A stretch of 64,000 bases of DNA. It comes from a candidate division WOR-3 bacterium UBA2258 (GTDB taxonomy: Bacteria > Hydrothermota > Tepidihabitantia > Tepidihabitantales > Tepidihabitantaceae). Of the stretch, positions 3,178-63,900 are shown one piece after another (the first letter of the stretch is position 1; each line of letters begins with the position of its first letter). Made by a program: the position numbers and the translations under genes. Where the stretch lies: the NCBI GenBank assembly GCA_002347155.1, contig DDXO01000120.1:17709-81708 (forward strand). The letters are read 5' to 3'. The notes beneath the pieces are model-generated. The model did not search any database. It saw nothing but the letters and a program-made list of their open reading frames with translations, and was not told the origin of the DNA.

Positions 3178-3304
3178 GGCCTCGGCGGGCGGTTGCGGGT
3201 GAAGGACGCTTGTATCCGATAGACGCCTATCGGTCTACAGCCTATCGGTCGCAGCCAGGGAAAGTGCCCCAGAGGTCAAGTGGTCTAGTGGAGGACGGGG
3301 ACAA

Positions 3305-3492
3305 TTCAGAATTCAGAAACCAGAGACCAGAATTCAGAATTCCAGGGTTCCGGGCTGCCGATGTCGCGCGGCTAATCGGGGTGAACGGGCAGGGTCCGAG
3401 GATTCGAGGATTCCAGGAGTCGAGTGGCGGAACGGACGTATCCGGTCTCGGATAAATCAGAACTCAGAAACCAGATGTCAGAATGCAGAACG
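3305..3492. repeat. cluster of short degenerate tandem repeats (CAGAAYTCAGAAACCAGA x2; GAGGATTC; GTGGTCTAGTGG)
   Basis: Near-identical strings at 3305-3349 and 3452-3492. ccgaggattcgaggattccaggagtcgag at 3396-3424 recurs in altered form at 4840-4866. Confidence 0.6.
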
Positions 3493-3550
3493 TCGGAGAC
3501 TCACGACTTGATGTTCCTTCGACTTCGCTCAGGACAAGCCTTGGCGACCA

Positions 3551-3647
3551 TGGCGGTCACCCCATTTTCGATTGCCGGATCGACATCTGTGTCCATCAGT
3601 GTGCCTCCGTGTTGGCTCTCTTCGGGATTCCAGTGGCGTTCTTGGCG
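3551..3647. repeat. direct repeat 'B', copy 1 (~97 bp)
   Basis: tggcggtcaccccattttcgattgccggatcgacatctgtgtccatcagtgtgcctccgtgttggctctcttcgggattccagtggcgttcttggcg is ~93% identical to 4713-4836, which has a 21-bp internal duplication. Confidence 0.75.
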
Positions 3648-3726
3648 ACCTTGGCGGTTGGCGGTTAGCGGAGAACGGTTAGCGGAAGTGGGGCCGCCGA
3701 GGCAGGCGCAGAATTGCTGTGAGGGG

Positions 3727-4059
3727 CTAGAGCGACTTGCAGACCTGACGAAGAGTCAGGACAACGCGAGACCAGTCGCCGGGCGTGAGCCGGCCCAGCT
3801 TCCTGTCAACCAGGCTTCGTTGCAGCGCAGCGACTTTGTGAAGCCGCACGACCGATGGAAGCAGCAGTCCGGCCTGCTGCCATTCGTTCAGCGTAACGTC
3901 TTGCGGAGTTGCCGAGAGCTGACCGGTGACACGCGCTACAACGATGTCGTCATCGCCCGTATCAAGCAGAAGCAACGCCGGTCGTCGCTTTGATCCGGAC
4001 GCATCAGTGAAGGGAAACTTGAGCAGGACGATGTCGCCGGCCGCGTACGAAGCCAACAT
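3727..4059 (-). CDS. mazF: type II toxin, MazF/PemK family endoribonuclease
   Basis: GDIVLLKFPFTDASGSKRRPALLLL...IVVARVTGQ matches the PemK/MazF signature. Its start overlaps the upstream antitoxin stop at 4059. Confidence 0.85.
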   Translation of the reverse strand: MLASYAAGDIVLLKFPFTDASGSKRRPALLLLDTGDDDIVVARVTGQLSATPQDVTLNEWQQAGLLLPSVVRLHKVAALQRSLVDRKLGRLTPGDWSRVVLTLRQVCKSL

Positions 4060-4277
4060 CAGGGCCGGTCGTATGCGGCGTCGGCGGCGGCGTAGCCGGA
4101 CAGGAACTGGTCGGTAGTCAGGCTATCCCAGGCGGACTGCTCGTCCGCGTCAGACGGGTCGGGGACCAGGACGATCACTCGCGCAGTCTTGCCGGCGGGC
4201 AGTGTTCGACGCAGTCGCTCAGGGATCTCCAGGTTGCCTTCGGCAGTTATCTTCGCCGGCGACTCGTAGGCTTTCAT
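4059..4277 (-). CDS. type II antitoxin, AbrB/MazE (SpoVT-AbrB) family
   Basis: KITAEGNLEIPERLRRTLPAGKTARVIVL is a swapped-hairpin AbrB-like motif. Sits immediately upstream of mazF in the same operon. Confidence 0.7.
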   Translation of the reverse strand: MKAYESPAKITAEGNLEIPERLRRTLPAGKTARVIVLVPDPSDADEQSAWDSLTTDQFLSGYAAADAAYDRP

Positions 4278-4280
4278 GCG

Positions 4281-4499
4281 TCAGATGCCCTGCAGGCGGC
4301 CGCTACGCTTGGCGTCCTTCGCCTCGCGTACAAGGAAGTCCAGTTTGCCTGAGGCGGAATCGGTTTCGATCTCTCGGTCCCATGCCTGCCAGTCCCTTTC
4401 GAGGAACCAGCGGCGGAACTTGTCGTAGTCCGGTTCGGGCAATTGCTCGACCGCGGTCTCAAGCTCGGTCAATCGGCCGCCCATTTTCACAGGTGACAT
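4281..4499 (-). CDS. hypothetical small protein, first gene of the TA operon (possible accessory antitoxin-like component)
   Basis: ORF 4281-4535. The likely start is an internal Met (MSPVKMGGRLTELETAVEQLPEPDYDKFRRWFLE...), with a 3-nt gap to the antitoxin gene. I could not assign a family. Confidence 0.3.
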   Translation of the reverse strand: MSPVKMGGRLTELETAVEQLPEPDYDKFRRWFLERDWQAWDREIETDSASGKLDFLVREAKDAKRSGRLQGI

Positions 4500-4656
4500 A
4501 TGAGGTAGTGTAGCTGTATGGAGAACCGGAGTCAAGACGCGGGCGGGAGGGCGAGGTAGGATGTCAGATGCTGGACGTAAGAGGTCAGAAGTGCAGGAGG
4601 AAAGGGATCGAGGGATAGAGAGATCGAGGGATCGAGTGCGAGGAGTAGGGTTCTGG

Positions 4657-4709
4657 GGTTCGGGTCGAGAATCTGTGGAATCTGCGTAATCTGTGGATGT
4701 CCTCTCCGA
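4657..4709. repeat. direct repeat 'A', copy 1 (52-53 bp)
   Basis: ggttcgggtcgagaatctgtggaatctgcgtaatctgtggatgtcctctccga is identical to 4864-4915. It contains an internal AATCTGTGGA x2. Confidence 0.8.
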
Positions 4710-4712
4710 CCT

Positions 4713-4836
4713 TGGCGGTCACCCCATTTTCGAGTCTAGATTGCCGATTTTCGATTGCCGGATCGACATCTGTGTCCATCAGTGTGCATCCGTGGTTGGC
4801 TCTCTTCGGAATTCCGGTGGCGGTCTTGGCGGTTCT
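4713..4836. repeat. direct repeat 'B', copy 2
   Basis: See copy 1 at 3551-3647. Copies A-B-A sit upstream of the TA operon and copy B1 sits downstream of it. Confidence 0.75.
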
Positions 4837-4863
4837 CAAGGACTCGGGTTCCAGGATTCCGAG

Positions 4864-4915
4864 GTTCGGGTCGAGAATCTGTGGAATCTGCGTAATCTGT
4901 GGATGTCCTCTCCGA
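4864..4915. repeat. direct repeat 'A', copy 2
   Basis: Identical 52-mer to 4657-4709. Confidence 0.8.
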
Positions 4916-4950
4916 AGGGACGGAAGGGGTCAGATCGGCTAAATCCGTGG

Positions 4951-5007
4951 TAAACGGTTGTTTACATACCCTCTCAGGACCAGGTTGAGGTTAAGGTTGA
5001 GGTTAGG
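4951..5007. promoter_or_regulatory. inverted repeat GTAAAC-GGTT-GTTTAC followed by a (GGTTGA/GGTTAA)n hexamer tract, ~150 bp upstream of the ECF sigma gene
   Basis: gtaaacggttgtttac at 4951-4966 and ggttgaggttaaggttgaggttagg at 4982-5007. Possible operator site; the hexamer tract belongs to a recurring family in this window. Confidence 0.3.
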
Positions 5008-6547: not shown

Positions 6548-6591
6548 GCGAAGGGTCAACCGCCAGGACGCCAGGCGGTTGGGAAGGAGAA

Positions 6592-6628: not shown

Positions 6629-6657
6629 GTTGTGCCGAGCCTGCGGCTTGCCGCCTC

Positions 6658-7845
6658 CTACTGCTTGGGGTCGTAGATGGCGCCGAGGAAGAGGACCGAG
6701 CCGGTGACGTCGTCGCGGATGGCGCAGAGGAAGGGATGGTCGCAGACAAAGGAGAACTTGTCCTCAGGCCTCGGCACCGCGGTCATCATCATCTTGACCC
6801 CGGTCACCGCCGCCGCCTCGGTTCCTTCTTCGTTCACCTCGACGAACGTCTTGTGCAGGACGTCGCTGATTGCCGCGGTGGCAGGCGGCACGACCATCTT
6901 CGAGAAGTCGGCGCCGGGAGTGAACGCCAGCCCCATGCCGAGGACCTGGAGCGTCTTGACCAGGTTCTGCTCGAACTCGATCTTGAACCGTGGCAGCACG
7001 ACCGTGCCCTTCTTCTCGGCGAAGCCACTGAAGAGAGAGGAGGGAGAGGAGAGGAGGGAGGAGATCAGCTTCGCGAGGCCGTCCTTCGCGCGCGGCAGGA
7101 AGACGTACATGTTGAGCCGTTCGTCGCCGTAGGGCAGAACCACGGCCTGCATCGCGTCATCTTCCTTGTAGCGGAACTCGTCTTCCCGGTTCATCATCTG
7201 GCGCTGCGCCGCGCCCGCGGCGAGGTGGAACTCGCGCGCCGACGTGAGCTTGGGGTCGAACGCCTCGGTCCAGGTTCCTTTAAAGTAGATGGCGTTGACG
7301 AGGACAAGAAACTCATCGGGCGTCAGCTCGCTGACGATCTCCTTGATGCGGCCGCCCGTGTTCTTCGCCACCCAGTCATTTATGGTAGTGACGGCACTGG
7401 GCCGGCCGAAGTCAAGCGTGGTCACCGACGCCCGGTAGTAGCTGCCGCAGTCGTCGGCGAACTGCTTCCGCAGCATCACGCCTTTGCGCAGCCAGAGCGA
7501 GTTGGCGATGTCGAGCCGCACCCGCTTGTCCGCGCTGACGAGTTCCTCGCGCAGCTTCAGGTTGCCGGCCGCGACCTCGGCCCGGGAGAGCCCGGACACC
7601 TTCATCGCGCCGGCCATTGCCTCCCACGTTGCGCCGGCCGCTCCGTGCGCGGTCATCTGGAGCGCAAGCGCGATGCTCAGGGGCGAAATAAAGACGTTCT
7701 CCCCCGGTCTGGCGTCGGTCACGTAGCTGAAGACCTCGATCCCGAACTTGTTGTCGGCCTCGACCAGTTCCGCGGAACGGATTGCCGCCGGCTGGGCGCC
7801 GGATGCGGCCGCGCAGAAGAGGATGGCTGCGAGCAGTAGACTCAT
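6658..7845 (-). CDS. serpin (serine protease inhibitor) family protein, secreted
   Basis: FISPLSIALALQM, NAIYFKGTW, hinge/RCL EVNEEGTEAAAVTG, FVCDHPFLCAI. A signal-peptide-like N-terminus (MSLLLAAILFCAAASGA) begins at ATG 7845, which is preceded by GGAGG. It contains a GA-microsatellite-encoded insert (SSLLSSPSSLFS). Confidence 0.9.
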   Translation of the reverse strand: MSLLLAAILFCAAASGAQPAAIRSAELVEADNKFGIEVFSYVTDARPGENVFISPLSIALALQMTAHGAAGATWEAMAGAMKVSGLSRAEVAAGNLKLREELVSADKRVRLDIANSLWLRKGVMLRKQFADDCGSYYRASVTTLDFGRPSAVTTINDWVAKNTGGRIKEIVSELTPDEFLVLVNAIYFKGTWTEAFDPKLTSAREFHLAAGAAQRQMMNREDEFRYKEDDAMQAVVLPYGDERLNMYVFLPRAKDGLAKLISSLLSSPSSLFSGFAEKKGTVVLPRFKIEFEQNLVKTLQVLGMGLAFTPGADFSKMVVPPATAAISDVLHKTFVEVNEEGTEAAAVTGVKMMMTAVPRPEDKFSFVCDHPFLCAIRDDVTGSVLFLGAIYDPKQ

Positions 7846-8097
7846 GGTTCCTCCGATTATTCTCAAACAGGCTAGCCGGCTCGTCATTGCTTGTCAAAGA
7901 CAATCTACCTGCGGGCTCGGGAGGGTATTCCGGGAGGGAGGCCGGTGCTCAGGTGACAAGAGGGAAGTGCTCCAGTGCTCCTCACCCCAACCCTCTCCTC
8001 TGAGAGGAGAGGGAGAGCGAAGCGAGGGTGAGAAGGGGACGCAGGAAGAGACCGGAAGCCAGGGGTAGGATGGGCTGGTCAAGCGGTCGGAAAGGGA

Positions 8098-8133
8098 AGT
8101 GGTCGAGTAGCCTAGTGGTCCAGTGGTCCAGTG
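8098..8133. repeat. (AGTGGTC)n-type repeat tract at the 3' flank of tatC
   Basis: aagtggtcgagtagcctagtggtccagtggtccagtg. A related tract at 8817-8853 flanks the 5' side (tctagtggtcaggtggtctagcggtccagtgg), and another sits at 3281-3298. Confidence 0.6.
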
Positions 8134-8810
8134 CGCGGGCGGGCAAGCAGGGAGGCGAGGACGCCCAGCTCGAAGAGAAGAAGCAGCGGGACCGCCATCA
8201 GGGTCTGGCTGAACACGTCGGGCGGGCTCAGGACAGCCGCGACGACGAAAACGAGCACGACGGCAATCCGCTGGTTCTTCATCAGCAGCCGGGGGGTGAC
8301 CACACTCAGCTTGGTGAGGAAGAACATGATTACCGGTAGCTGGAAGATAACGCCGCAGGCGAGCAGGAACGCGCCCACCGTGCCGACGTACTCGCCGATG
8401 GAGAGCATTGCCTGGAGCTTCGGGCTCTGGAAGCTCAGAAGGAACTTCATCGCGACCGGTACGACCACCAGGTAGGAGAATGCGACCCCGGCGACGAACA
8501 GCACCGATGAGACGACCACCGCCGCCGCGATGTACTTGACCTCATGCTTGTACAGCGCGGGCCGGACGAACCGCCAGAACTGATAGAAAATCACCGGCGA
8601 AGCGATGAAAAGACCCGTGACCAGGGCAACTTTGAGCTGGACGACAAAGGCCTCGGCCGGGGCGAGATACACGAGCTTCGGCACCGGACGGGTCAGCAGG
8701 TCGAGCACCCGCTGCGAGACGAAGAACCCCGCGACCGCCGCTACGCCCACGGCGATCAGCGCGTAGAAGATACGTTTGCGGAGCTCTTCGAGATGGTCGA
8801 GGAAGGTCAC
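8112..8810 (-). CDS. tatC: twin-arginine translocase subunit TatC
   Basis: LEELRKR, PAEAFVVQLK, and six TM-like segments typical of TatC. Located downstream of tatA. Confidence 0.9.
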   Translation of the reverse strand: MTFLDHLEELRKRIFYALIAVGVAAVAGFFVSQRVLDLLTRPVPKLVYLAPAEAFVVQLKVALVTGLFIASPVIFYQFWRFVRPALYKHEVKYIAAAVVVSSVLFVAGVAFSYLVVVPVAMKFLLSFQSPKLQAMLSIGEYVGTVGAFLLACGVIFQLPVIMFFLTKLSVVTPRLLMKNQRIAVVLVFVVAAVLSPPDVFSQTLMAVPLLLLFELGVLASLLARPRTGPLDH

Positions 8811-8816
8811 TTGGAT

Positions 8817-8853
8817 AGTGATCTAGTGGTCAGGTGGTCTAGCGGTCCAGTGG
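8817..8853. repeat. (AGTGGTC)n-type repeat tract between tatA and tatC
   Basis: See 8098-8133. Confidence 0.6.
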
Positions 8854-8953
8854 CAGGAGGGAAGTCCTGCGGCTTGGCCATTACGGATTGAGACTACGCG
8901 GAGAACCACTCTGTTCGTGCACTTGTGCACTGGAGCACTAGAGCACTATCGGC

Positions 8954-14034: not shown

Positions 14035-17000
14035 GTGGCGACCGATTCCGGCCTTGCCTCGGCCGACGTAAGGGTCAACGACTGGCAGACCTACGACCTG
14101 CGCGGTACCGTGCGCGCGCTCGCGTTCGATGACCGCTATGTCTGGGCCGGCGGCGACTCCGGCCTCGCGCGGTTCGACAAGTTCTCGGAGACCTGGCAGC
14201 AGCGCTCGGAGGCACCGGTTCTCGCCCTGCTGGCTGCGGCGGAACGCGTCTGGATTGCCACCGCTACCGGCGTGCTCAGCTACGACCAGAAGTTCGACCG
14301 AATCGACGCGACGCCGGCGCCGGCCGACTCCTATACCCGCATAGTCGATACGCGGAATTCAATCTGGTTTGCAGGCCGGGTGCGGCTCGCCGGCTACCGG
14401 AAGGCCACGGCTTCGTGGACCGAATACAGCGCGATCCCCGCCGCCGACTTCTCGGTGCTCGGCGATTCCATCCTCTTCGCTGAAGACGGCGGACCGCTGG
14501 TCTATGATCCCGGCTCGGACCGCTGGGGTAAGCCGCAGCTCATCGGAATGCCCGACGTCGTGACCGATGCTTTCCTCTCGTCGTCGGAGATGCTCTTCGC
14601 GTCCGACCAGGGGCTCGTCATCATCGACACCAGAGAGAACACCCGGCAGGTCTGGACCAGGAGCAATGGCCTCGCTGATGACAGGCTCGTGCGGGTCTAC
14701 TGCGACCAGCGGTTCATCTACGCCCTGACCGCAGGCGGAATTCAGTACTTCGACCGCCAGCAGAAGCTCTGGAAACAGGAGGGTTTTGTACTGCCGCAGG
14801 CCCGCAGGAGGCAGCTTGCCTGGCTCGACGACGCGGGCGCCCACCTGGGTATCGTCCCCGACACCGACATCCGTCTGTCCGGCCGCGCCTACTACTCCCA
14901 GTCGCGGGTGTTCTCTGGCAGCAGCGGCACAACCAGCGACTTCGAGAACATCGGCCTGAACCTTCTGGCCCGGCATCGGTCCGGCCGCGCCCTCTCGCTC
15001 TTCTACGACGACTCGGACCGCGACCTCGTCGCCTATGGCCTCGGGTACCGCGGAGTGGGTCCCGACGTGCTCCACCGTGCGAATGCGGGGAAGCTCAAGT
15101 CCGAGTACTCGGAATTTGATCTCATACCGCCGTTCTCGACCCTCGGCGCGAATGCGCGTCTCATTCTTCCCCAATCCCCGGCCGCTAACCCCCGGGCCCT
15201 TTCGCTTGACCTGCAGGGCGGCCGCATCGAGTCGGCCCTGCGCAGCGACTTCTTCACGGGACGCTCGGTCGACAAGGAAGTCAGGCGGCCCGACATCGAC
15301 TACGCCCGCGGCGTCTTATACCGCCTGCCTTCACCAGCCGCCTCGCAGTGGGACACGGTGTTCGCCGACGACCGCATCCCGACAACGAACACCCCGAAGA
15401 CTCGCGTCGGTTGGACGGTCGGCGACGTCACCGGCGACTTCGACCCGCTCCTGCGCGGCTCCGACTACTTCGTTGACCGGGCCGGTAGCGTCATCTATTT
15501 CGTCGGCGCGCGCAAGCCCGGTGACATACTCGTGTTTGTCGGCAACGCGGGTGCACAGGTTCTCCAGTCCGAGTCCGTAGCCGGGAATGCGCTCCGGAAC
15601 ACGTACTTCTTCGGCCCGGACATCACGCCCGGGTCGTTCGAACTCCAAATCACCGATACCACGGGCGCGGTCCACGCCCTTTCCGGATTCGGCATCGACG
15701 ACGACAACGACGGCCGCGTGGACCCGGCCCATCTGGACCACGACCTCGGCTTTCTCTCTTTCCCTTCGCCCCTGGTCGCTGACTCGCTGGCCCCTTCCGT
15801 CTACTCGCTCCGCGCCACCTACCGCTCGCAATCGACCTTCTACAGCCTGACTCACAAGCCGGTGGTCAAGAACAGCGAAACCGTCGTCGTTGACGGTGCG
15901 GTGATGGCCCGCGGCTCCGACTATGTGCTGGACTACACCTCGGGCATCCTGCTGTTCCTGAAGAAAGACGTGGTCACCGACTACAGCCAGATTGACTTGC
16001 GCTACTCCACGGTCGAGCGGCCCGATTCGTGGACGACCAGGGACCTGCTCTTCTCCGCCCAGCCCGGCTTCACCCTTCTCGACTCGTCGTTCTCGGCTCA
16101 GCTTGCTCCCGGCTTCACGCGAGTGGCGGGCGAGAACATCGTCCACCTCTCCGGCCGGGCCGAGGCCGGAGCCGGCACGGACAAGAGCATCAGGTTTGTG
16201 CCCCAGTTCGCGGTCCGCTGTCCGACCGGGGCCGCTGCGGCCAACAGCGACAAGGCGCTGGCCCAGGACTACTCGTTGAGCGGCAACTTCGGCGTGTTCA
16301 GCGCCGCGGCGCAGTACCGCGGGTTCGGCCCGGGTTTCGAGGAGTTCGGGGCCGGAGAACGGCGCTACGGCGTGCTCCGCCATGCGGCCGCGTTCTCGGC
16401 CGGGGCCGAACCCTTGTCGCATCTCCGCGTCGACGGCACGGCTAGGCGTGACTACGTCGCCGACCCGCTTGCGCCGGACGCGGCGCTGCTGACTGCCGAC
16501 TACTTGTCCGGCAAACTCAGCTACGTCAACCCGAAGTACCCGAGCGGATTCGTGCTCTGCGCCAACGACCGCCTGCCGGACGGGAACCGGCTCCGGGCCA
16601 AAGCGAACGCCGGCTACGAGTTCACACTCCTCAAATCCAGGCTCAAGCTCAACGGCATCGTCCAGAACAGCTCACTTGAGCACTTGAGCACTAGTGCACT
16701 AGAGCACTCTCTTGAGTACATCGCCGAGGCGACCTTCGCCCTGCCCTTCCCGGTCCAGGGCAGCATCCGTTATCGAAACAACGGCCTCTCAAGCGACGGT
16801 ACGCAAACCCGCCGCGAGGACGAACTCCGCGGCCAGCTCAACATCGACGTCGTCCCGGGGTTATACTACACCGGATCCTACAACCTCCTGACCGGGATGA
16901 GTTCGCTCGGCGCCACCCGGGACCTTGAACTTGAGGGCTACCTGTACAACAACCTGCAGGTCGCACCCGGCCGCTGGTGGTCGAAGCTGTCGGTCGTCAA

Positions 17001-19639: not shown

Positions 19640-19644
19640 GAAAA

Positions 19645-19752
19645 TGGGGACTGTACCGCGACGAGCAGGCGCCGGGGACACATCCGCGACGCGGTCCTCG
19701 CGTCGCTCCGTGGACGTGTCCCTCAAAGGACTGTCCCCATTTTCGGTCCGGC
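19645..19752. terminator. long imperfect inverted repeat between convergent genes (putative bidirectional terminator)
   Basis: aaaatggggactgt...(80 nt)...actgtccccatttt with an inner gggacacatcc/ggacgtgtccc pairing. Confidence 0.4.
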
Positions 19753-21355: not shown

Positions 21356-21889
21356 TCAGACCTGTCCCTCGCCGATGTCAAGCAGGACGGAGAGCGTCAC
21401 TCCGCGCCGGGCGAGGTCGGCCTCCCAGACGACCTTGAGACGGTAGCCGCGAGCGGCCGCAAGGAGCTTCTTATCGACGTCGTGCAACCGGTTCCGGCGC
21501 TGGTTCGGTGTGAGGACCCGACCCTCGTAGACGCGCGGGTCGGCGTGCCAGTAAGTCCCGTGGACTTCCACAAGCAGCCGGTCGGGAAGAAGGAAGTCGT
21601 ACGCGTACGGCCCCAGCGGGAACTGCCAGCGATACTCGACCCCGGCCGCATCGAGCAGCTTCGCGAACTTCGCCTCGAGCTTGTTGTAGGAACGGCACGG
21701 GTAGCCCGTAGCCGCCTGCGCAGCGGCCGTCCGGCGATGGCGCCACCAGGCCGCGGCCTGTTCGACGCGCCGCCGCCGTTCACGCCGCTGCCGCGCGATG
21801 TCGTCCGAGTCAGGGGAAGGAGAGGTCAAAGAAGCGGGGTCAGGGAGCGGGGGCCGGGGATCCGGCTTCCAGTCCGAACTCCCGGCCAT
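21356..21889 (-). CDS. DUF559 (Vsr-like) endonuclease domain protein
   Basis: ...YAYDFLLPDRLLVEVHGTYWH...RGYRLKVVWEADL matches the DUF559/very-short-patch-repair-like signature. The N-terminus is Arg-rich. Confidence 0.7.
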   Translation of the reverse strand: MAGSSDWKPDPRPPLPDPASLTSPSPDSDDIARQRRERRRRVEQAAAWWRHRRTAAAQAATGYPCRSYNKLEAKFAKLLDAAGVEYRWQFPLGPYAYDFLLPDRLLVEVHGTYWHADPRVYEGRVLTPNQRRNRLHDVDKKLLAAARGYRLKVVWEADLARRGVTLSVLLDIGEGQV

Positions 21890-21939
21890 GGGATTCTGGT
21901 GTCTGGATTCTGAACTCTGACTTCTGGTCTATCCGGCTC

Positions 21940-22701: not shown

Positions 22702-23129
22702 CGTACCTCCTCCGGCGCCGCCCGCGGCGGGAAAGCTACAAAACTACCCTACTGCCCCCCGGTCTAGCTGCCTCTACGGGGGTAGCAAAGGATATGCCGC
22801 CTCGGCCGGCTGTCAACAAAGTCGCAGCGCGGAATAGCGCGGAATCCGACCGCGCGGTTACGGTACCGATACTGGAGCCACAAGAGCACATCGTTGATGA
22901 AGCACGAATTCCGAAGTCCGCACTGCCCGACCGGGGCCACTGAGGTCAAGCTCGAATGCACCACGATCCCGAATTGCGCCTCGGGCTTCGGGCTTGAATC
23001 GTCACTCTGGTTTCGGACTTCGAGCTTGAACCTCGCTCCACTCGTGGCCGTCTACGTCGGATTCATGGCGGCCACGTTCCTTTGACTTCGCCAATCTTCA
23101 ACCTACAATCTGCAATCTGGAATGGCTCG

Positions 23130-23202
23130 GGCCGTTAGCTCAGTTGGAAGAGCACCTGATTTTTAATCCGGTGGCCGCAGGTTCGAATCCTGCACGGCCC
23201 AT
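23130..23202 (+). tRNA. tRNA-Lys (anticodon UUU)
   Basis: I folded it by hand. Acceptor GGGCCGT/ACGGCCC. D-arm GCTC-AGTTGGAA-GAGC. Anticodon arm CCTGA-TTTTTAA-TCCGG (one U.C mismatch), anticodon TTT. T-arm GCAGG-TTCGAAT-CCTGC. Discriminator A, no encoded CCA. Confidence 0.8.
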
Positions 23203-28521: not shown

Positions 28522-29686
28522 GCCGGTCCCCAGTCCCCAGTCCCCAGTCCCCAGTCCCTTAGACCTACCTGAGGGTGTACCGGCTTTGCGGGCGTTCTAT
28601 CTCTACATGTCCAATACCTGCAACCTCCGTTGTCGCCACTGCTGGATAACGCCGGGATTCGGCGACGGCAAGGAGACGCCAGGCGATTTTGTGGACCCCG
28701 AGGCGCTGCGTCAAGCCGTGGTCGAAGCCAAACCGCTCGGGCTTTGCTCGGTGAAGCTGACCGGTGGCGAACCGATGCTCCATCCCCGTTTCATGGAAAT
28801 CGCGGACCTGTTGACGGCGGAGGGGATGCACATGGACATGGAGACCAATGGCACCCTCATGACCGCTGAGAAGGCGCGTCATCTGAAAGAAAAGACGAGT
28901 GTCACATTCATCTCGGTCAGCCTGGATGCACCTGACGCCCGCTCGCACGACAGCTTCCGTGGAGTACCCGGCGCGTTCGACGCAGCCGTGCGCGGGCTCG
29001 ATTGCCTGGTGAACGCCGGGTACAGAAACTGCCAGGTTATCATGAGCGTTCACAAGGGCAATCGCCACCAGGTCGAGGAAGTTGTCGCTCTTGCCGCAGC
29101 CCATGGTGCAAATTCGGTGAAGTTCAACCCGGTCACCAGGACCGGCCGGGGCGCGGCAATGGAGGAAAGCGGCGAGGTAATGGACTACGACGAGCATCTC
29201 GCCTTTGCGCGGTATGTGTCAACCGAGCTACGTCCGAAAGCCCGGGTTGGAGTCATCCTCAATATGCCCCCGGCCTTGTCATCGATGCGCGACCTCTTGC
29301 GTACCCACGGCCGGACCGGTGACTGCGGTGTTTTGCGCATCCTTGGGGTATTGGGGAATGGCGACATCGCCCTGTGTGGCATCGGCCGGACAGTCCCGGA
29401 ACTGGTCTACGGGAAACTCGGCCGCGACAGCATTCGCGACATCTGGTTCTCCAACCCGACGATCCTCGGTCTGCGCCGAGCCCTGACGGACGTTGATGCG
29501 CTGCCGCTCCCCTGCGCCAAGTGTCTGTTCGTGAGGACATGTCGCACCGGGTGCGTGGCGAACAACTACACGGAAAGCGGGTCGTTGATTGCGCCGACCT
29601 GGCTGTGCGCGGAGGCTGAACGCCGCGGCGTCTTCCCGGGCAAGCGAGCGCAGAGAAGGACGTCTGGGGGCGAAAGAAAGGGATAG
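28508..29686 (+). CDS. radical SAM / SPASM-domain peptide-modifying enzyme 2
   Basis: CNLRCRHC; SPASM CGIGRT...CAKCLFVRTCRTGCV. GTG start overlaps rSAM-1 by 14 nt. The N-terminus contains the (CCCCAGT)4-encoded PVPSPQSPVPSP. Confidence 0.9.
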   Translation: MSICEPVPSPQSPVPSPLDLPEGVPALRAFYLYMSNTCNLRCRHCWITPGFGDGKETPGDFVDPEALRQAVVEAKPLGLCSVKLTGGEPMLHPRFMEIADLLTAEGMHMDMETNGTLMTAEKARHLKEKTSVTFISVSLDAPDARSHDSFRGVPGAFDAAVRGLDCLVNAGYRNCQVIMSVHKGNRHQVEEVVALAAAHGANSVKFNPVTRTGRGAAMEESGEVMDYDEHLAFARYVSTELRPKARVGVILNMPPALSSMRDLLRTHGRTGDCGVLRILGVLGNGDIALCGIGRTVPELVYGKLGRDSIRDIWFSNPTILGLRRALTDVDALPLPCAKCLFVRTCRTGCVANNYTESGSLIAPTWLCAEAERRGVFPGKRAQRRTSGGERKG

Positions 29687-29870: not shown

Positions 29871-29929
29871 GATGTCGCCTACCAACCAGAGAGGGCTACA
29901 GGTCCGATAAAGTACTTAGGAGGTTAGTG

Positions 29930-30190
29930 ATGCCAGAAAAAGACGAGTCCAAGTATGACGCTCCGAGAGCAGTGCGGCTTGTTGATGCTGCGAGCGCACG
30001 GGGCAGTTGTTATTCCGGGGACACTCCCGGTGAAAGCTGCTACGACGGTAGCAACGACGTGTCGTGCAATACAGGTACCGGTGCACAGGCTTACTGCGTC
30101 AACAATGGCAGTAATGCCGCCGGCTGTGACGTAGGCAACTCTCCTGCGGTGAAGGGCTGCGAAGCAGGCCTCGGAGTCCACGCGCTGTAG
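29930..30190 (+). CDS. RiPP precursor peptide A (86 aa; leader about 1-23, core with 6 regularly spaced Cys)
   Basis: MPEKDESKYDAPRAVRLVDAASA|RGSCYSGDTPGESCYDGSNDVSCNTGTGAQAYCVNNGSNAAGCDVGNSPAVKGCEAGLGVHAL. AGGAGG RBS is 6 nt upstream. Shares the leader motif YDAPRAxRLxDxAxA-RG with 32214-32498. Confidence 0.7.
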   Translation: MPEKDESKYDAPRAVRLVDAASARGSCYSGDTPGESCYDGSNDVSCNTGTGAQAYCVNNGSNAAGCDVGNSPAVKGCEAGLGVHAL

Positions 30191-49548: not shown

Positions 49549-49550
49549 GT

Positions 49551-50976: not shown

Positions 50977-51003
50977 ACCACAAAGACACAAAGGCACAAA
51001 AAG
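50977..51003. repeat. (ACAAAG)n-type microsatellite in intergenic spacer
   Basis: accacaaagacacaaaggcacaaaaag. Confidence 0.5.
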
Positions 51004-57770: not shown

Positions 57771-58978
57771 GCTTCTGAAACGGCGGATGCTCGCAACTCG
57801 CCGATGTAGCGACAGATTCTCTCCACTGTCTCTTCCGATATCTCGTGATACGTCGGCAGCGTCAGAATCCTCCCGGCCACTCGCCGCGCCACGACCAGCG
57901 GGTCGCGGGTCCGGATGTTCCGGTAACAAGCGAAGTCCGGCACCAGCGGATAGAAGTACCTCCGCGCGTGGATATTCAGCCTCTTCAACTCCCGATAGAG
58001 ACGGTCCCGGCTCATCCCGAATTCCGTTTCATCAACCTCGACCGGCATATACCCGTAGTTGTAGCGAACTCTGGGCGGCAGCGGCTGCGGGATGCGGATG
58101 CCCGGCACGTCGGCCAGTCTCTCCCGATAAACCTTCTCGGTCGACCGTCCCTCCTCAATCAGTTCATCCAGACACTTCAGCACCAGCATACCCATCAGGG
58201 CCTGCAGCTCGTTCATCTTGGCGTTGGTACCGGGCATCACCACCTTGACCTCGTTCTTGAAACCGAAGTTCCTCAGGTAGTCGAGCTTCTGCTTGAGCCC
58301 GGCGTCCTGGAAGGTCAGCATTCCGCCTTCTATCGAGTGATAGAGCTTGGTCGCGTGGAAGCTGAACATGCTCATATCACCGTAATGGGCGATGGACTTG
58401 CCACCGACCTCGACGCCGAAGGCGTGCGCAGCGTCGTAGATGAGTTTCAGTCTGTGCCGTCTTGCGATGTCGGCCAGTTCCTTCAACCCGCTGGGATAGC
58501 CGAACACGTGGACGGCCAGGATTGCCGAAGTCCGGGGAGTGATTGCGGCTTCGACTTTTTCCGGGTCGAGCGTGTAGTAGTCCGGCTCGATGTCAACAAA
58601 CACCGGCGTGAGCTGGTTCCAGTAGAGCGCATGGGTGGTGGCGACAAAAGTGAACGGGGTAGTAATGACTTCACCCGTTATCCCCATCCCCTGCAGGCCG
58701 AGCTGCAGGGCCAGAGTGCCGTTGTTGAACAGGCAGACATTGTCCGTCCCGAGGCAACGGGACAACTGGCCGGTGAACCGCTGCAACAGCGGCCCGTTGT
58801 TTGTCAGCCAGCGGCTGTCCCATATCTCCTTCAGCCCGGCCGCAAACTCCTCAATCGGAGGCAGAAAGGGGCGAGTTACGTATATCGGCTCATCCAGCCG
58901 GTGCAGCCCGACGCGGACGTCGGGAATGGCGGGGGGAGGTAGAGGTGGAGGTGAAGGTTGAGATTCAGACAGCCTCAT
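57767..58978 (-). CDS. DegT/DnrJ/EryC1/StrS-family PLP-dependent sugar aminotransferase
   Basis: VTRPFLPPIEEF..., FSFHATKLYHSIEGG (PLP Lys). The annotated N-terminus (MRLSESQPSPPPLPPP) is encoded by the hexamer repeat tract; the true start may be internal. Confidence 0.9.
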   Translation of the reverse strand: MRLSESQPSPPPLPPPAIPDVRVGLHRLDEPIYVTRPFLPPIEEFAAGLKEIWDSRWLTNNGPLLQRFTGQLSRCLGTDNVCLFNNGTLALQLGLQGMGITGEVITTPFTFVATTHALYWNQLTPVFVDIEPDYYTLDPEKVEAAITPRTSAILAVHVFGYPSGLKELADIARRHRLKLIYDAAHAFGVEVGGKSIAHYGDMSMFSFHATKLYHSIEGGMLTFQDAGLKQKLDYLRNFGFKNEVKVVMPGTNAKMNELQALMGMLVLKCLDELIEEGRSTEKVYRERLADVPGIRIPQPLPPRVRYNYGYMPVEVDETEFGMSRDRLYRELKRLNIHARRYFYPLVPDFACYRNIRTRDPLVVARRVAGRILTLPTYHEISEETVERICRYIGELRASAVSEA

Positions 58979-59177
58979 GTGTTCACCTTGACCTTAGCCT
59001 TGACCTTAACCTGCCGAGAGGCAGTGGTTGAGGTTGAGGCGGCCGACCAGGCTGAGGTTGAGGTGAAGTCTGAGACCCCGGTCCTCGGTCATCCGTCATC
59101 CGTCTTCCGTCACCGGTCATCGGTCCTCCGTCATCCGTCTTCCGCCCTCCGTCACCGGTCATCCGTCTTCCCATCCT
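58925..59177. repeat. intergenic spacer composed of two hexamer-repeat families (GGTTGA/CCTTAA type then CCGTCA/CCGGTC type)
   Basis: ccttgaccttagccttgaccttaacctg...ggttgaggttgaggcggccgaccaggctgaggttgaggtgaag; then tccgtcatccgtcttccgtcaccggtcatcggtcctccgtcatccgtcttccgccctccgtcaccggtcatccgtcttcc. Confidence 0.8.
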
Positions 59178-61452: not shown

Positions 61453-61680
61453 CGGTCAAGCGCTGTAAGCGCAGTCACGCAGGAGGTCCATGACATGGTT
61501 GCCGACCGGTGACTGCGCAGACTGTTCGAGGCCACACGGCAGTGAACGAAAGGATAGGCCCAGAACGGCCTTGGGCACCGAGATGGGAGCGTGCTCGCGG
61601 GGCACGACAGGTCCTCCAAGTTGACCGGAATGACTTTGGCGTCGAGAGCCAGAGATACCCGGCTTGGGCCCGTCGCCCAC

Positions 61681-63018
61681 TCACCGACTAGCCGCAGGCT
61701 TGACTCCTTTCGCATGACTCCAGGTGTAGTCACAGAGGAATCCGGAGAACGGCCAGACAACCCCGGTTCCGTAGTAATCGCCTTCCGCCACGTCAAGAAC
61801 CAAGGCAGCGTTGACTCTGTCTGCCAGCACCTTGTTCTGTTCGATGTCGACATTCAGCGAAAAGCGACCTGACTCAAGCGGAAGCCGCTTTATCACGCAG
61901 ACAAACGTCCCGGTCCCCTCAATCCAGTCGATGTTGAACCGAACGACCTCTGACCCGAGATACAACATGGGGGACTGATCGAGTCTCCGCACCCCGATTG
62001 CCACCACGACATTGCGGAGGCCGTTCGTCCCATCGCAGGCATAGTCTACCTCGGCCACGGCATCCTCACCGGTGATCCAGTGGCCGCTCGCGGGATCAGT
62101 ACGAGTGCCGACGCGCATGCCCGTGACCTTGACAACACCACTGCCCTGTCGGTCTCGCCGGTCCGCAAGAAGCGTGGCGTCCCCGCGGTTCAGTATCTCC
62201 CCCAGGTAGTTCCCGATCACGTCAGCGGCAACACCTGACTGTACAAGACGACCGTCTCGTAGGAGAACAGCTCGCTGACAGAGCCCCCTCACAGCAGTCA
62301 TGTTGTGGCTCACGAAGAGAACGGTCCGCCCGCCCGAGGCTACGTCACCCATCTTGCCTAGACACTTCTTCTGGAACGCCGCGTCGCCCACGGCAAGGAC
62401 CTCGTCGACAAGCAGTATCTCCGGGTCCAGGTGAGCCGCGACCGCGAACGCCAGCCGCACGTACATGCCACTGGAGTAACGCTTCACCGGCGTGTCTATG
62501 AACTGCTCGACTTCAGAGAAAGCCACGATCTCATCGAACTTGCGGGCAATCTCCACCTTCTTCATGCCTAGAATGGCCCCGTTGAGGTAGATGTTCTCTC
62601 GCCCGGTCAGTTCCGGGTGAAATCCGGTGCCGACCTCAAGCAGACTCGCCACACGACCTTTGGCTTTGATCTGTCCGCTGGTCGGAGCCGTCACGCCGGT
62701 CATTATCTTGAGCAAGGTGCTCTTGCCTGCGCCGTTCCGACCGATGATGCCCAGAATCTCGCCTTGTTTGACCTCGAAGTTGATGTCCTTGAGGGCCCAG
62801 ATGATCTCGCCGTCGCGGTTATCTGGTTTGTGGTTTTTGGTTCTTGGTTCTTGGTCGTTTCGTCTAAGGTCTTGCTGGCCGATCTTGGCCAGAGGATTGG
62901 GCTTGCCCCTTGCCTTCGCCCACCAGATCTTCAGGTCGTCGACAAGTCTGCCGGTGCCGATCTGGCCGAGTCTGTAGGACTTGGACAGGTGCTCTACCGA
63001 AATGACAGTGCTAGGCAT
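61681..63018 (-). CDS. ABC transporter ATP-binding protein, Wzt/TagH-like (polysaccharide export) with C-terminal extra domain
   Basis: Walker A GIIGRNGAGKSTLL, signature YSSGMYVRLAFAVA, Walker B ILLVDEVLAVGD, plus a ~190 aa C-terminal domain. An in-frame insert (DQEPRTKNHKP) is encoded by a GGTTCTT-type repeat at 62825-62862. Confidence 0.9.
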   Translation of the reverse strand: MPSTVISVEHLSKSYRLGQIGTGRLVDDLKIWWAKARGKPNPLAKIGQQDLRRNDQEPRTKNHKPDNRDGEIIWALKDINFEVKQGEILGIIGRNGAGKSTLLKIMTGVTAPTSGQIKAKGRVASLLEVGTGFHPELTGRENIYLNGAILGMKKVEIARKFDEIVAFSEVEQFIDTPVKRYSSGMYVRLAFAVAAHLDPEILLVDEVLAVGDAAFQKKCLGKMGDVASGGRTVLFVSHNMTAVRGLCQRAVLLRDGRLVQSGVAADVIGNYLGEILNRGDATLLADRRDRQGSGVVKVTGMRVGTRTDPASGHWITGEDAVAEVDYACDGTNGLRNVVVAIGVRRLDQSPMLYLGSEVVRFNIDWIEGTGTFVCVIKRLPLESGRFSLNVDIEQNKVLADRVNAALVLDVAEGDYYGTGVVWPFSGFLCDYTWSHAKGVKPAASR

Positions 63019-63114
63019 GGCAGGTTGAGGTTAAGGTTGAGGTTGAGGCCGAGGAACAGGCTGAGGTTGAGACTAGGGTTGAGAAAGAACAGACCGAGGT
63101 CGAGGCAGAGATGC
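63019..63114. repeat. (GGTTGA/GGTTAA/GGCTGA)n hexamer tract filling the spacer upstream of wzt
   Basis: aggttgaggttaaggttgaggttgaggccgaggaacaggctgaggttgagactagggttgag... Confidence 0.8.
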
Positions 63115-63243
63115 TCACTTAGAGGACCTCCGGAGGGACGAGATCACGCGGTTGAGCTCGGTATGGACTTGGTCGAGTCTGTCGGAGAGCGCCGCAACAT
63201 CGGACGCCGCCAGGTAGCCGACGCGCCCATCAATGAAGGCTGA
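63115..63243 (-). pseudogene. truncated duplicate (C-terminal ~40 aa) of the adjacent four-helix-bundle protein gene
   Basis: DGRVGYLAASDVAALSDRLDQVHTELNRVISSLRRS aligns with GRRVGYIPASVANDLSVKLEFLHTDLNKVISALKKQ of 63354-63773. The rest of the ORF (to 63357) is translation of the hexamer tract. Confidence 0.5.
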
Positions 63244-63353
63244 GGTTGAGGTTAAGGCTGAGAGAGGAAAGAGCAAGGTTGAGGCGGAGGTCGAGGTTGA
63301 GAGGGGATAGGCCGAGGCTAAGGTCAAGGCCGAGGTCAAGGTCAAGGATGGCA
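63244..63353. repeat. hexamer tract (GGTTGA/GGCTAA/GGTCAA family)
   Basis: ggttgaggttaaggctgagagaggaaagagcaaggttgaggcggaggtcgaggttgagaggggataggccgaggctaaggtcaaggccgaggtcaaggtcaagg. Confidence 0.8.
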
Positions 63354-63773
63354 TCACTTGGCTTGCTTCTTGAGCGCAGAGATGACCTTGTTCAAGTCGG
63401 TGTGTAAGAACTCTAGCTTCACGGAAAGGTCATTGGCGACGGACGCTGGTATGTAACCCACTCGCCTGCCGTACTCAAGATGACTCTGCGTTTCGGTCAG
63501 AGAACCTCGAGCAATGTGATAGAAGTTCACTTTGTCGAGAGTGTGGGAGCGGCCAAAGGCCTCCGCGATGTTGGCAGAGATACTAAGAGCCGCTCGGCGG
63601 ATCTGAGAAGTGAAGCCGTAGTCTTCCTTGCGCGGGAGCCCGTCCGTCAGTGCAAACACTCGCTCGGCTACTTCCATTGCCGTCTGCCATACAGGCATTT
63701 CCCTGAAGGAGAGATAGGGAGGTTTAGGTTGAGGCTGAGATGCAGGAGCAGGTCTAGGTTGAGAGGTCTGCAT
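63354..63773 (-). CDS. four-helix-bundle protein (23S rRNA intervening-sequence protein family, TIGR02436-like)
   Basis: MPVWQTAMEVAERVFALTDGLPRKEDYGFTSQIRRAALSISANIAEAFGRSHTLDKVNFYHIARGSLTETQSHLEYG. The first ~25 codons of the ORF are hexamer-tract encoded; a likely start is near ATG 63698. Confidence 0.85.
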   Translation of the reverse strand: MQTSQPRPAPASQPQPKPPYLSFREMPVWQTAMEVAERVFALTDGLPRKEDYGFTSQIRRAALSISANIAEAFGRSHTLDKVNFYHIARGSLTETQSHLEYGRRVGYIPASVANDLSVKLEFLHTDLNKVISALKKQAK

Positions 63774-63900
63774 CTTCTACCTTAACCTCGCCCTTAGCCT
63801 TAACCTCGAACTAGGTTGAGGTCTAGGTTCGGGTTGAGAAAAGGCTATCATCCTTGCTCGGTTCTCCTCTCAGAACTTAACCTTAACCTTAGCCTTAACC
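63715..63900. repeat. hexamer tract in both orientations (GGTTGA... then CCTTAACC...)
   Basis: ggtttaggttgaggctgag...ccttaacctcgcccttagccttaacctcgaactaggttgaggtctaggttcgggttgag...cttaaccttaaccttagccttaacc. Confidence 0.8.

Follow-up and report, generated by a model that had tools for sequence, protein, structure and literature searches.

Simple-Sequence Repeat Tracts in a WOR-3 Genome and Inverted Hexamer Arms around a Four-Helix-Bundle Gene of Its Polysaccharide Locus

The window analyzed here is a stretch of 64,000 nucleotides (GC ~61%) from the candidate division WOR-3 bacterium UBA2258 (GCA_002347155.1, contig DDXO01000120.1). It carries genuine long simple sequence repeats (LSSR) with units of 5-9 nt, which are enriched well beyond chance. 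Judging from related WOR-3 genomes, many of these tracts are inherited vertically and are drawn from a small set of units common to those genomes. In the polysaccharide locus, G-rich and C-rich arms of the hexamer (GGTTRA)n enclose a four-helix-bundle gene lying between wzm and wzt. This armed cassette appears to reproduce the layout of the intervening sequences (IVS) of 23S rRNA inside polysaccharide operons. The hexamer is spread across phyla with one arm polarity; around relatives of the gene its arms are predicted to pair and are associated with operons of sugar-nucleotide genes.

Repeat Tracts of the Window

Tracts were detected with Tandem Repeats Finder (TRF), and the gene map combined genes called on matching contigs with Pfam checks. 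With a period of 5-9 nt and at least three copies, the window contains 31 arrays, while each of 20 dinucleotide-preserving shuffles contained 0-1. A preliminary description of this DNA had allowed that the tracts might be no more frequent than expected, which these counts contradict. The number of repeat intervals is 58 against 11.8 +/- 3.3 in 30 dinucleotide shuffles, and repeat coverage amounts to 1798 bases against 260 +/- 82. All tracts named in that description were recovered by TRF with coordinates exact or a few bases off (4982-5005, 7033-7063, 8098-8133, 8817-8853, 8919-8948, 16673-16708, 28526-28558, 31509-31546, 34863-34889, 35176-35256, 50979-51000, 58935-59012, 59088-59171, 62824-62855, 63022-63083, 63237-63347 and 63876-63902). 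Further copies of the window units form dispersed arrays on other contigs of the genome.

The worry that the tracts are assembly artefacts was not borne out, since independent assemblies reproduce them. The window matches the JGI 3300002821 contigs Iso3TCLC_10003182 and _10004962 at 100%, and four more assemblies (JGI 3300001580, ENA ERZ27315071 and ERZ27315072, Logan SRR5324050) match at 99.86-100% across the tracts. A single 1-base gap was found in all these comparisons; it is sited at a variant junction.

Of the 8979 non-coding bases, 693 (7.7%) fall in a stringent subset of the tracts, and of the 55021 coding bases 664 (1.2%) do, which makes this subset about 6-fold denser outside genes. 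Tandem units of 5-11 nt beyond composition, together with a non-coding bias, are the marks of the LSSR/STRR (short tandemly repeated repetitive sequence) class, and both are present here. Co-directional genes are separated by 11 of the 13 tract-bearing spacers. Six spacers on the gene map are filled end to end by tracts (21890-21939, 23086-23128, 34846-34890, 58979-59177, 63019-63114 and 63774-63906), in agreement with the earlier claim that tracts make up whole spacers. The tracts had been called a pervasive family; they are real and exceed chance, but most other spacers are tract-free, and the term therefore holds for a subset of spacers. Their placement within spacers of operons, in 5' leaders, at N-termini and in a surface loop fits the idea that they are tolerated in linkers and N-termini.

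Strand asymmetry of the tracts is strong, with a mean |GC skew| of 0.51 against 0.18 in random segments. Within called open reading frames (ORFs), the C-rich strand is almost always the sense strand, and near gene starts it is sense in 34 cases versus 12. Tracts lie after stop codons or inside genes as often as near starts. As the C-rich strand has hardly any stop codons, tracts easily become the "first codons" of ORFs. Some of these tract-encoded codons are probably ORF extension and not translated sequence. Tracts do cover the first ~15-25 codons of several ORFs, as had been reported, and several of these may be such extensions.

The Four-Helix-Bundle Cassette

The four-helix-bundle gene (63354-63773, minus strand) belongs to the S23p family (PF05635, E = 7e-32; TIGR02436, E = 2e-31), and the closest solved structure to its product is Xanthomonas XCC0516 (PDB 2GSC, E = 7e-19). 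The gene sits between wzm and wzt, which are normally adjacent. In the sense direction, the order is G-arm, C-arm, G-arm, ATG, C-rich tract, gene body, stop, C-arms, 3' fragment, C-arm and the ATG of wzt. The upstream arms (63774-63906) occupy the spacer between wzm and the four-helix-bundle gene; they comprise a G-rich arm from 63901 to 63878, a C-rich arm from ~63840 to 63815 and a second G-rich arm from 63806 to 63775 that reaches the ATG. Codons 3-18 (63765 to 63715) come from a C-rich hexamer tract. Immediately past the stop, C-rich (sense) hexamer arms at 63244-63353 are predicted to pair with the upstream G-rich arms.

These are followed by a 3'-terminal fragment of a second four-helix-bundle gene (63115-63243, minus strand), which has its own stop codon and shares 50% identity with the intact copy over its last 36 residues (E = 5e-11). 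One more C-rich (sense) hexamer arm (63019-63114) forms the entire leader up to the wzt ATG. This leader is a C/A/U-only repeat without a Shine-Dalgarno motif, while other genes of the window have clear GGAGG-type sites; as RNA it is almost unstructured (-10.8 kcal/mol for 104 nt, z = +0.6). It suggests an alternative initiation mode, or coupling, for wzt.

A second copy of the gene is found in the same genome just beyond the window (L002, 488-1042). Its order is a 100-nt G-arm, ATG, C-rich tract, gene body, an 18-residue 3' fragment and a 58-nt C-arm. Both copies have the hexamer-arm layout, and they are only 72% identical. When the 888-nt element of the window is folded, the upstream G-arms pair with the downstream C-arms in both the minimum free energy and the centroid structure (z = -3.4). 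This element and a weak pair near the serpin gene aside, the candidate long-range inverted repeats around other genes of the window seem to be chance matches within GC-rich coding sequence and were rejected.

Like an IVS, the element has terminal inverted repeats enclosing an ORF, as seen in the predicted fold and in the inverted arms of 34 of 46 related genes. IVS proper are inserted in a 23S rRNA helix; this element lies between wzm and wzt in a window without rRNA, so it is IVS-like in layout and not strictly an IVS. Among the scanned ORFs of the window there is no transposase, integrase or reverse transcriptase, and no target-site duplication is recognizable beside the simple-repeat ends. 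Nor do the neighbouring genes, which are transport and glycosyltransferase genes, contain the reverse transcriptase domain of a diversity-generating retroelement.

Relatives of the Cassette

Generality was assessed with 80 metagenomic loci that carry relatives 41-72% identical to the window's four-helix-bundle protein. Repeats cover 12.9% of the bases up to 300 bp from the gene; in the same loci, they cover 5.3% of the remaining non-coding sequence and 1.55% of everything farther than 500 bp from it. Hexamers account for 128 of the 151 arrays within 300 bp. Arrays stand on both sides of 46 genes, with the same unit inverted in 34 and direct only in 5. Without exception, the upstream arm of the matched inverted pairs is the G-rich form (34/34) and the C-rich arm is downstream. 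The upstream G-rich units are mostly AAGGTT or AGGTTG, with GGGGTT, AAAGGC and others also found. The arm unit co-varies on both sides of the gene: GGGGTT is paired with AACCCY at locus L211, and other units are matched at L151 and L068. The energy of the flank-to-flank duplex reaches z < -3 versus shuffles in 25 of 67 genes.

Flanking ORFs (n = 113) are co-directional with the four-helix-bundle gene in 86% of cases. Enzymes of sugar-nucleotide and polysaccharide metabolism predominate among them, the domains matched being Epimerase (23), GDP_Man_Dehyd (22), RmlD (18), Polysacc_synt_2 (10), DegT (5) and NTP_transferase (5). As a control, the neighbours of generic hexamer arms, among the matches listed in the genome scan described below, had no sugar-nucleotide or polysaccharide bias. 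Several cassettes per locus were found at 9 of the 80 loci.

Two further ideas were rejected. The 3' fragments are not a general footprint of cassette replacement, being present behind both copies of this genome and behind 0 of 76 others. A phage vector was discarded because 2.9 million viral contigs held 1 relative locus. Separately, two metagenomic contigs that carry a four-helix-bundle gene, L189 (1-600) and L195 (the whole 1008-bp contig), are palindromic for 70-200 nt past the hexamer arms; either the assembly folded back at the arms, or the long inverted repeat is real and may be an invertible segment.

The Hexamer across Phyla

A scan with GGTTRAGGTTRAGGTTRAGG, taking one genome per species, returned at least 120 loci (852 kb) with (GGTTRA)n from many phyla. 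Among the matches listed, most are from Bacteroidota; Geobacterales, Syntrophia, Myxococcota, Nitrospirota, Aminicenantes, Cloacimonadota, Chlorobiota, Fibrobacterota, Kiritimatiellia, WOR-3 and others are also represented, and cultured isolates are included, among them Chryseobacterium koreense, C. taichungense, Pelotalea chapellei DSM 13688, Geomonas anaerohicana and Phaeodactylibacter luteus. The GC content of the hosts spans 29% to 69%. About three quarters of the listed hexamer tracts lie outside ORFs. The loci contain 363 arrays with 5-9-nt units, i.e., 27 per 64 kb, which is close to the window itself and means that hexamer-bearing genomes are repeat-rich in general. Of these listed arrays, ~200 are not the selected hexamer and are mostly heptamers of very diverse sequence. 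Of the heptamers, 26% lie no more than 100 bp from a hexamer arm, against 4.9% of bases, an apparent clustering that could stem from the confinement of both classes to spacers.

These results disagree with the lineage-specific process that had been proposed for the tracts. A second ground is the CCCCAGT/GGGGACT unit of the window, which is the Nostoc repeat unit of Rehm et al. 2015 (PMC4692102). By sequence comparison, the hexamer is common across phyla and the heptamers are lineage-specific.

The polarity seen around the four-helix-bundle genes recurs in the scan. Where two arms lie at most 150 bp apart, the G-rich arm precedes the C-rich one in 13 listed cases and the reverse order in 0. Listed G-then-C examples without an ORF, from at least six phyla, form hairpins, some of them followed by a T-run. 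Three four-helix-bundle ORFs are found among the listed loci, each bracketed by repeat arms whose unit differs each time. The notion that a hexamer tract always stands beside such a gene was rejected on this count; the link is strong in the other direction only. The view of solo arms as cassette relics in polysaccharide loci is likewise unsupported, the neighbours of generic arms being unrelated housekeeping genes.

Inheritance and Length Stability of the Tracts

The spacer between the glycosyltransferase gene GT2 and degT illustrates how the tracts are passed on. Directly past the GT2 stop, the window has (GGATGAC/GGAAGAC) x12 (59172 to 59081) and then a C-rich hexamer arm (59075 to 59027), all within 59027-59172 on the minus strand. 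Next is the start-codon module of DegT (58935-59012, minus strand), with a G-rich arm from 59012 to 58985, the ATG at 58978-58976 and a C-rich arm from 58962 to 58935; the ATG is placed in the loop, and the C-rich arm is read as DegT codons 7-16. In a related WOR-3 species (L131, GCA_016935295.1; DegT 88% identical), the orthologous spacer keeps the order of modules: GGATGAC/GGACGGA heptamers, a CTCAACC arm, a small hairpin CCACTGCCTCTCGGCAGG, the GGTTAAGGTCAAGG arm, tgaacacATG and a CAACCT/CACCTC tract. Copy numbers differ between the two species, and one module is duplicated. This resizing between species agrees with the slippage suggested earlier. The upstream ATG of DegT and the tract-encoded N-terminus are in frame in both species (27 versus 39 codons); in the NCBI annotation, the orthologue begins with a CTG that lies past the tract.

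Families of tract units found in the window recur on further contigs of this genome and in relatives with as little as ~60% protein identity. They include GGTTGA-type hexamers, GACGGGA/GGGGACN, AACCAGA/AATTCAG, CACTAGAG/AGTGGTCC, GAATCTGTG and CACAAAGA.

On the scale of strains, tract length is stable. For 17 arrays, a second strain or assembly allows comparison, and tract length is the same in all of the 4-5 consensus assemblies, in which minor variants could escape notice. Strain L008 has 16 substitutions in 11 kb (0.14%) and unchanged tract lengths. The suggestion that the tracts are phase-variable contingency sites is therefore unsupported. Gain or loss of hexamer units preserves the reading frame, and heptamer tracts in leaders could alter spacing through their copy number.

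Yet breakpoints, whether of rearrangement or of assembly, do coincide with tracts. L001 matches the window exactly over 15.3 kb and then diverges at 63052, inside the hexamer arm before wzt. L008 diverges at 4739-4768, inside a repeat mosaic beside a PemK toxin cassette. Two contig ends are also located inside tracts, at 59114 (Logan contig L003, heptamer tract) and at 4886.

The Loop Insert of the S26-like Proteins

Of the two S26 paralogues of the window, one forms the C-terminal domain of ScmC (TIGR04249) and the other is an S26-like protein in its own right (S26b); both belong to a SynChlorMet cassette. For the S26-like protein (86% identity), as for DegT (88%), the nearest named relative carries the annotation of a candidate division WOR-3 bacterium. 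The 12-mer GTCCTTCGTCCC and its complement GGGACGAAGGAC were confirmed at the homologous loop of the two genes. Tracts at 31509-31546 and 35170-35258 occupy the same alignment position in opposite orientation. In the ScmC domain (31509-31546, plus strand), G-type heptamers (CGAGGGA x5.3) encode the loop insert EGRGTRDEGLRDA. The 28-aa insert of S26b (35170-35258, plus strand) is encoded by C-type heptamers only (CGTCCCT/CGTCTCC, GTCCCYN in general form, ~12 units).

It had been argued that such tracts reflect recurrent independent insertion and not inheritance. An alignment of 20 homologues speaks against this: the S26 orthologues of the WOR-3 clade and both paralogues all have an insert of 9-36 aa, while distant ScmC/S26 homologues, annotated as Chloroflexi, Anaerolinea, Deltaproteobacteria, Acidobacteria and Victivallaceae, have none between HRV..V[T] and P.GI.TRGDNN. 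Orientation also flips among orthologues. The S26b orthologue of L133 has a G-type insert (GGGGACN), and that of L132 has a C-type arm (GGTCCCC GGTCCCC GGTCTCC) directly followed by a G-type arm (GACGGGA GACGGGA ...), forming a quasi-palindrome. In view of these flips and the palindromic state, one old insertion into the S26 loop, followed by arm loss or template switching, would be a simpler account than repeated insertion.

The SynChlorMet cluster comprises three PqqD genes, two radical SAM genes (rSAM, one with a SPASM domain), scmC, an ABC transporter, the S26-like gene and NTP_transf_5. Two of its long "spacers" hold uncalled paralogous small ORFs of 87 and 94 aa (29927-30190 and 32214-32498, both plus strand), with a common leader YDAPRA.RL.D...ARG and Cys/Gly/Asn-rich cores. 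These are probably the precursor peptides of the cluster.

Further tracts lie in the same cluster. GTCCCCA x4.7 (28526-28558, plus strand, 100% identity; (GGGGACT)n on the opposite strand) begins 5 nt past the rSAM-1 stop and ends 46 nt before the Pfam domain of rSAM-2. G-rich hexamers of the AGGYAR type (34846-34890, plus strand) make up the entire spacer between the ABC gene and S26b up to the ATG; as RNA, this tract folds more poorly than shuffles (z = +1.9). At 35770-35911 (plus strand), GTCCCCC-type heptamers and then a 42-bp unit (35796-35906, x2.6, 95% identical) lie within the first 60 codons of the longest NTP_transf_5 ORF, whose Pfam domain starts only at residue 65. This repeat is either a leader or a repeat-encoded N-terminal extension.

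Origin and Role of the Tracts

The explanation proposed here combines inherited slippage-prone tracts, arms forming a stem around the four-helix-bundle ORF, RNase III processing and junctions at the DNA level. Taken as a whole, this model is evenly poised between being right and wrong. Slippage would resize the tracts, and inverted duplication or template switching would yield the pairs of G-rich and C-rich arms. Tracts would persist only in unconstrained sequence, namely in operon spacers and leaders, at N-termini and in one surface loop. Once the operon is transcribed, the arms would pair into a stem of ~25 bp or more. Cutting of this stem by RNase III would insulate the cassette from the wzm-wzt message or excise it, and insertion would thus be cheap for the host. 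At the DNA level, the tracts would act as junctions for rearrangement and cassette turnover. By analogy with rRNA, the IVS-like cassette is probably processed as RNA, and it may be selfish or mobile.

Several observations weigh against this model. Some 130 of the 164 listed hexamer clusters are solo arms, mostly beside unrelated genes, so arms are not simply cassette relics. The listed 852 kb yielded just three four-helix-bundle ORFs even with an iterated hidden Markov model search. In the sample of relatives, arms are present on both sides in only ~40-60% of genes (21/55 by pattern, 33/58 by TRF), and the palindromes of L189 and L195 beyond the arms inflate two of the z-scores. The heptamer-nonamer tracts, which form most of the finding, have no pairing partner and are weakly linked to the four-helix-bundle gene; these can be explained only as products of slippage that are tolerated. 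The whole DegT spacer folds no better than shuffles (z = -0.3), and hairpins at start codons reach no more than modest stability (z = -1.4 to -2.4). RNase III cleavage of the arms is an argument from analogy, and the junction of L001 could be a misassembly.

The tracts could instead be neutral by-products, that is, debris of slippage and inverted duplication under weak selection, with arm complementarity and gene proximity arising from shared mutational history. This is unlikely, though it deserves serious consideration. It agrees with the restriction of tracts to unconstrained sequence, the high diversity of heptamer units among genomes, the predominance of solo arms beside unrelated genes and the lack of structure in single arms as RNA. 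The excess of heptamers was ascribed to polymerase slippage by Mrazek et al. 2007, as relayed in PMC4679880. Debris would not readily account for one hexamer unit with one G-then-C polarity across phyla and from 29% to 69% GC, for arm units that co-vary on both sides of the gene, or for a tract architecture kept between species with lengths stable between strains.

A true mobile element is a rather improbable alternative. The (GGTTRA)n arms would be its terminal inverted repeats, the four-helix-bundle gene would belong to the autonomous form, and the ORF-less hairpins would resemble miniature inverted-repeat transposable elements; or else the ORF targets pre-existing hairpin loops, much as the IVS of rRNA are located in the loops of helices. 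The fixed polarity (13 to 0 in adjacent pairs, 34/34 in matched arms), the cross-phylum spread, the ORF-less hairpins in at least six phyla and the 9 of 80 loci with several cassettes are as such an element would leave them. The same is true of the second-copy 3' fragments behind both genes of this genome, and the Coxiella IVS has been described as selfish (PMC4990558). Such fragments are nevertheless found behind 0 of 76 other copies, the two copies of this genome are only 72% identical, and viral contigs are almost devoid of relatives (1 locus in 2.9 million). The scanned window ORFs include no transposase, integrase or reverse transcriptase, and no target-site duplication or empty site was seen.

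Post-transcriptional control has only a slim chance of being the general explanation. Tracts would then be sites for RNA-binding proteins of the S1, Csp or CsrA type, or strings resembling Shine-Dalgarno (GAGG/AAGG) and anti-Shine-Dalgarno (CCUC) sequences, by which a start is masked or made accessible. At DegT, the G-arms end in AAGGUGA 7 nt before the AUG, which in two species is the loop portion of a hairpin formed by G-arm and C-arm; several leaders consist wholly of tract, and the 34-to-12 excess of C-rich sense strands near starts points the same way. Tracts are, however, as frequent after stops and inside genes, their units are too diverse for a single binding protein and hairpin z-scores are weak. 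Hexamer arms also occur in Bacteroidota, which make little use of Shine-Dalgarno pairing. An RNA-binding-protein model was proposed by MacGregor 2015 for TAACTGA repeats (PMC4679880). For individual leaders, translational control by Shine-Dalgarno-like or anti-Shine-Dalgarno-like strings is possible.

A similarly slender prospect attaches to a bolder reading, in which an S23p/Avd-like pentamer and the tracts are one system. The protein would bind repeats or hairpins and, with a trans-acting polymerase, reverse transcriptase or recombinase, seed and spread the arms. The G-rich strand always runs 5' to 3' toward the cassette, as it should if the 3' ends of a break were extended by repeats. If true, this would explain why cyanobacteria, Bacteroidota, Xanthomonas and WOR-3 are rich in both repeats and four-helix-bundle paralogues, and it would give a function to a protein family that has been without one for 30 years.

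Hypermutable contingency loci that switch polysaccharide genes by copy number are very improbable: many tracts do lie in the polysaccharide locus, some at gene starts, but 0 of 17 arrays vary across 4-5 assemblies (the 0.14%-diverged strain included), hexamer changes keep the reading frame and units of 6-9 nt fall outside the 1-5-nt class known for phase variation (PMC4692102). Hardly any credence can be given to G-quadruplex-forming repeats like GGGNATC of Xanthomonas and Nostoc: (GGGGACT) x4.7 at 28526-28558 is the Nostoc unit at near the preferred four copies (Rehm et al. 2015), and 35186-35211 fits the motif, but these are the only two tracts to do so (at least four G-runs of 3 or more, 1-7 nt apart), the window has 7 such motifs against 4-10 in shuffles, and the hexamer arms have only GG runs.

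Other Tracts and Neighbouring Genes

The left part of the window contains a repeat mosaic around the PemK toxin cassette (3727-4499, minus strand). To its left (3303-3671), TRF, the sequence and BLAST self-matches revealed AATTCAG x5.7 (3303-3342), CGAGGATT x3.5 (3397-3424) and TTGGCGG x3 (3651-3671). To its right (4603-5005) are AGGGATCG x4.2 and two occurrences of GAATCTGTG x3.2, which belong to a 63-bp direct repeat; the right end (4982-5005) is a solo hexamer arm of the G-rich type. The cassette is flanked by direct repeats of 88 bp (3561-3647 and 4744-4831, 93%), and both copies of the 63-bp repeat (4647-4709 and 4853-4915, 95%) lie to its right. Left of ~4740, L008 has sequence unrelated to the window. 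Given these direct repeats and the L008 variant, the cassette looks recently gained or lost by repeat recombination. Immediately left of the mosaic and toxin cassette, 2051-2984 holds a helix-turn-helix (HTH) gene and then an SRA-HNH nuclease gene (restriction-like, with recognition of modified cytosine). This arrangement suggests a small island with a defence or mobile character.

Another repeat family, which is palindromic ("ggggactgt ... gtccccattttcg"), is found at 19640-19745, between convergent genes, and at L001 5600-5720. Its motif "ccccattttcg" also occurs within the 88-bp repeat at 3561-3647.

Tracts are nested around tatC (8112-8810) on the minus strand at 7966-8948: AGTGCTCC x2 (7966-7981), AGTGGTCC x4.5 (8098-8133), AGTGGTCTAGCGGTCA x2.3 (8817-8853) and GCACTAGA x3.8 (8919-8948). 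Read by eye, the outer pair is inverted and the inner pair direct. The unit family of the tracts adjoining tatA and tatC is also present in frame within the gene of a 1235-aa protein (CACTAGAG x4.5, 36 nt, 16673-16708, plus strand). Two more coding tracts were recovered by TRF: a GA-rich one within the serpin gene (7033-7063, minus strand; sense strand C/T-rich) and TGGTTCT x3.6 at approximately codons 52-64 of wzt (62824-62855, minus strand).

Of the remaining spacer tracts, GGATTCT x5.3 (21891-21927) occupies a 50-nt spacer between two co-directional genes. The adjoining gene (21356-21889, minus strand) encodes a 177-aa protein with a sub-threshold match to the Vsr mismatch endonuclease (E = 7e-4). 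CAATCTG x4.6 (23092-23123, plus strand) occupies a 43-nt spacer immediately 5' of tRNA-Lys (23129-23201). The spacer between wzy and a glycosyltransferase gene holds CACAAAGA x2.8 (50979-51000), a unit found in the same genome also at L007 2711-2735.

Relation to Known Repeats and Significance

Mazel and co-workers reportedly described cyanobacterial STRR heptamers in 1990, and the CCCCAGT/GGGGACT unit of the window is identical to STRR1. Genomes rich in repeats with 5-11-nt units were defined by Mrazek et al. 2007, as relayed in PMC4679880. The window tracts share with the LSSR/STRR class the 6-9-nt units, a few to a dozen imperfect copies, many arrays, the non-coding bias and a sporadic phylogeny. 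They differ in that hexamers are as prominent as heptamers, many arrays are inverted arm pairs and the host is a WOR-3 bacterium; no published description of such repeats in WOR-3 was found. GGGNATC/GGGGAYT repeats of Xanthomonas and Nostoc lie preferentially between co-directional ORFs (Rehm et al. 2015, PMC4692102). The similarity extends to placement near stops and starts, to the identical unit at 28526-28558 and to Xanthomonas as the source of 2GSC. The difference is in G-quadruplex potential, which is confined to two window tracts, with G-quadruplex motifs not enriched.

TAACTGA heptamers are shared by distant phyla, being found in marine Beggiatoaceae, cyanobacteria and some Bacteroidetes (MacGregor 2015, PMC4679880). 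For Bacteroidetes, the same paper speaks of "assemblages of heptamer repeats", notes that contigs end within these and regards a part in rearrangement as possible. Both systems have a unit spread over distant phyla without a known transfer mechanism, tracts abutting starts that lack Shine-Dalgarno sites and mixed assemblages of heptamers. The unit is another one here, the window heptamers have no strong forward-orientation rule, and PMC4679880 has no arm pairs or four-helix-bundle link.

The closest layout is that of the S23p IVS. In Coxiella, RNase III cuts a 28-bp terminal stem whose loop carries the S23p ORF, and GACAGAT heptamers in tandem, variable in number, precede the ORF (Warrier et al. 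2016, PMC4990558). The IVS of Leptospira and Coxiella thus resemble the cassette in having the same family in the loop of an inverted-repeat stem and tandem repeats before the ORF, and in being regarded as selfish. They differ in that the host here is a protein-coding operon (wzm-wzt, sugar-nucleotide genes) and the arms are long simple repeats, while IVS arms are unique sequence.

REP/BIME elements (repetitive extragenic palindromes and bacterial interspersed mosaic elements) are intercistronic stem-loop elements of enterobacteria. They are likewise repeated palindromic elements in operon spacers that form RNA hairpins and recombination junctions. REP sequences are, however, unique 35-40-nt palindromes mobilized by the RAYT transposase, and no RAYT gene was seen here. 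Avd, known from diversity-generating retroelements, shares this fold family of four-helix-bundle pentamers and, jointly with a reverse transcriptase, binds nucleic acid. The window gene differs in having neither a reverse transcriptase nor a template/variable repeat pair nearby, and its relatives are nearly absent from viral contigs.

An earlier description of the hexamer sequence, or of S23p in polysaccharide loci, was not found, which is weak evidence given incomplete coverage of the literature. The same applies to the IVS layout outside rRNA, fixed-polarity hexamer arms across phyla and the preference for polysaccharide operons.

For the annotation of metagenome-assembled genomes in these phyla, the tracts matter because assemblies break at them and called ORFs become longer through them. 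Simple repeats of 6-9-nt units have figured in surveys of bacterial genomes for decades, yet no role for them is agreed upon. Proteins of the S23p/four-helix-bundle family occur widely, with a role otherwise known just from diversity-generating retroelements. The link of a cross-phylum hexamer to this family, to fixed polarity and to polysaccharide operons makes both problems testable in culturable bacteria. It raises the questions of whether RNase III cuts the arms, whether the pentamer binds them, and whether the cassettes move or drive the exchange of O-antigen genes.

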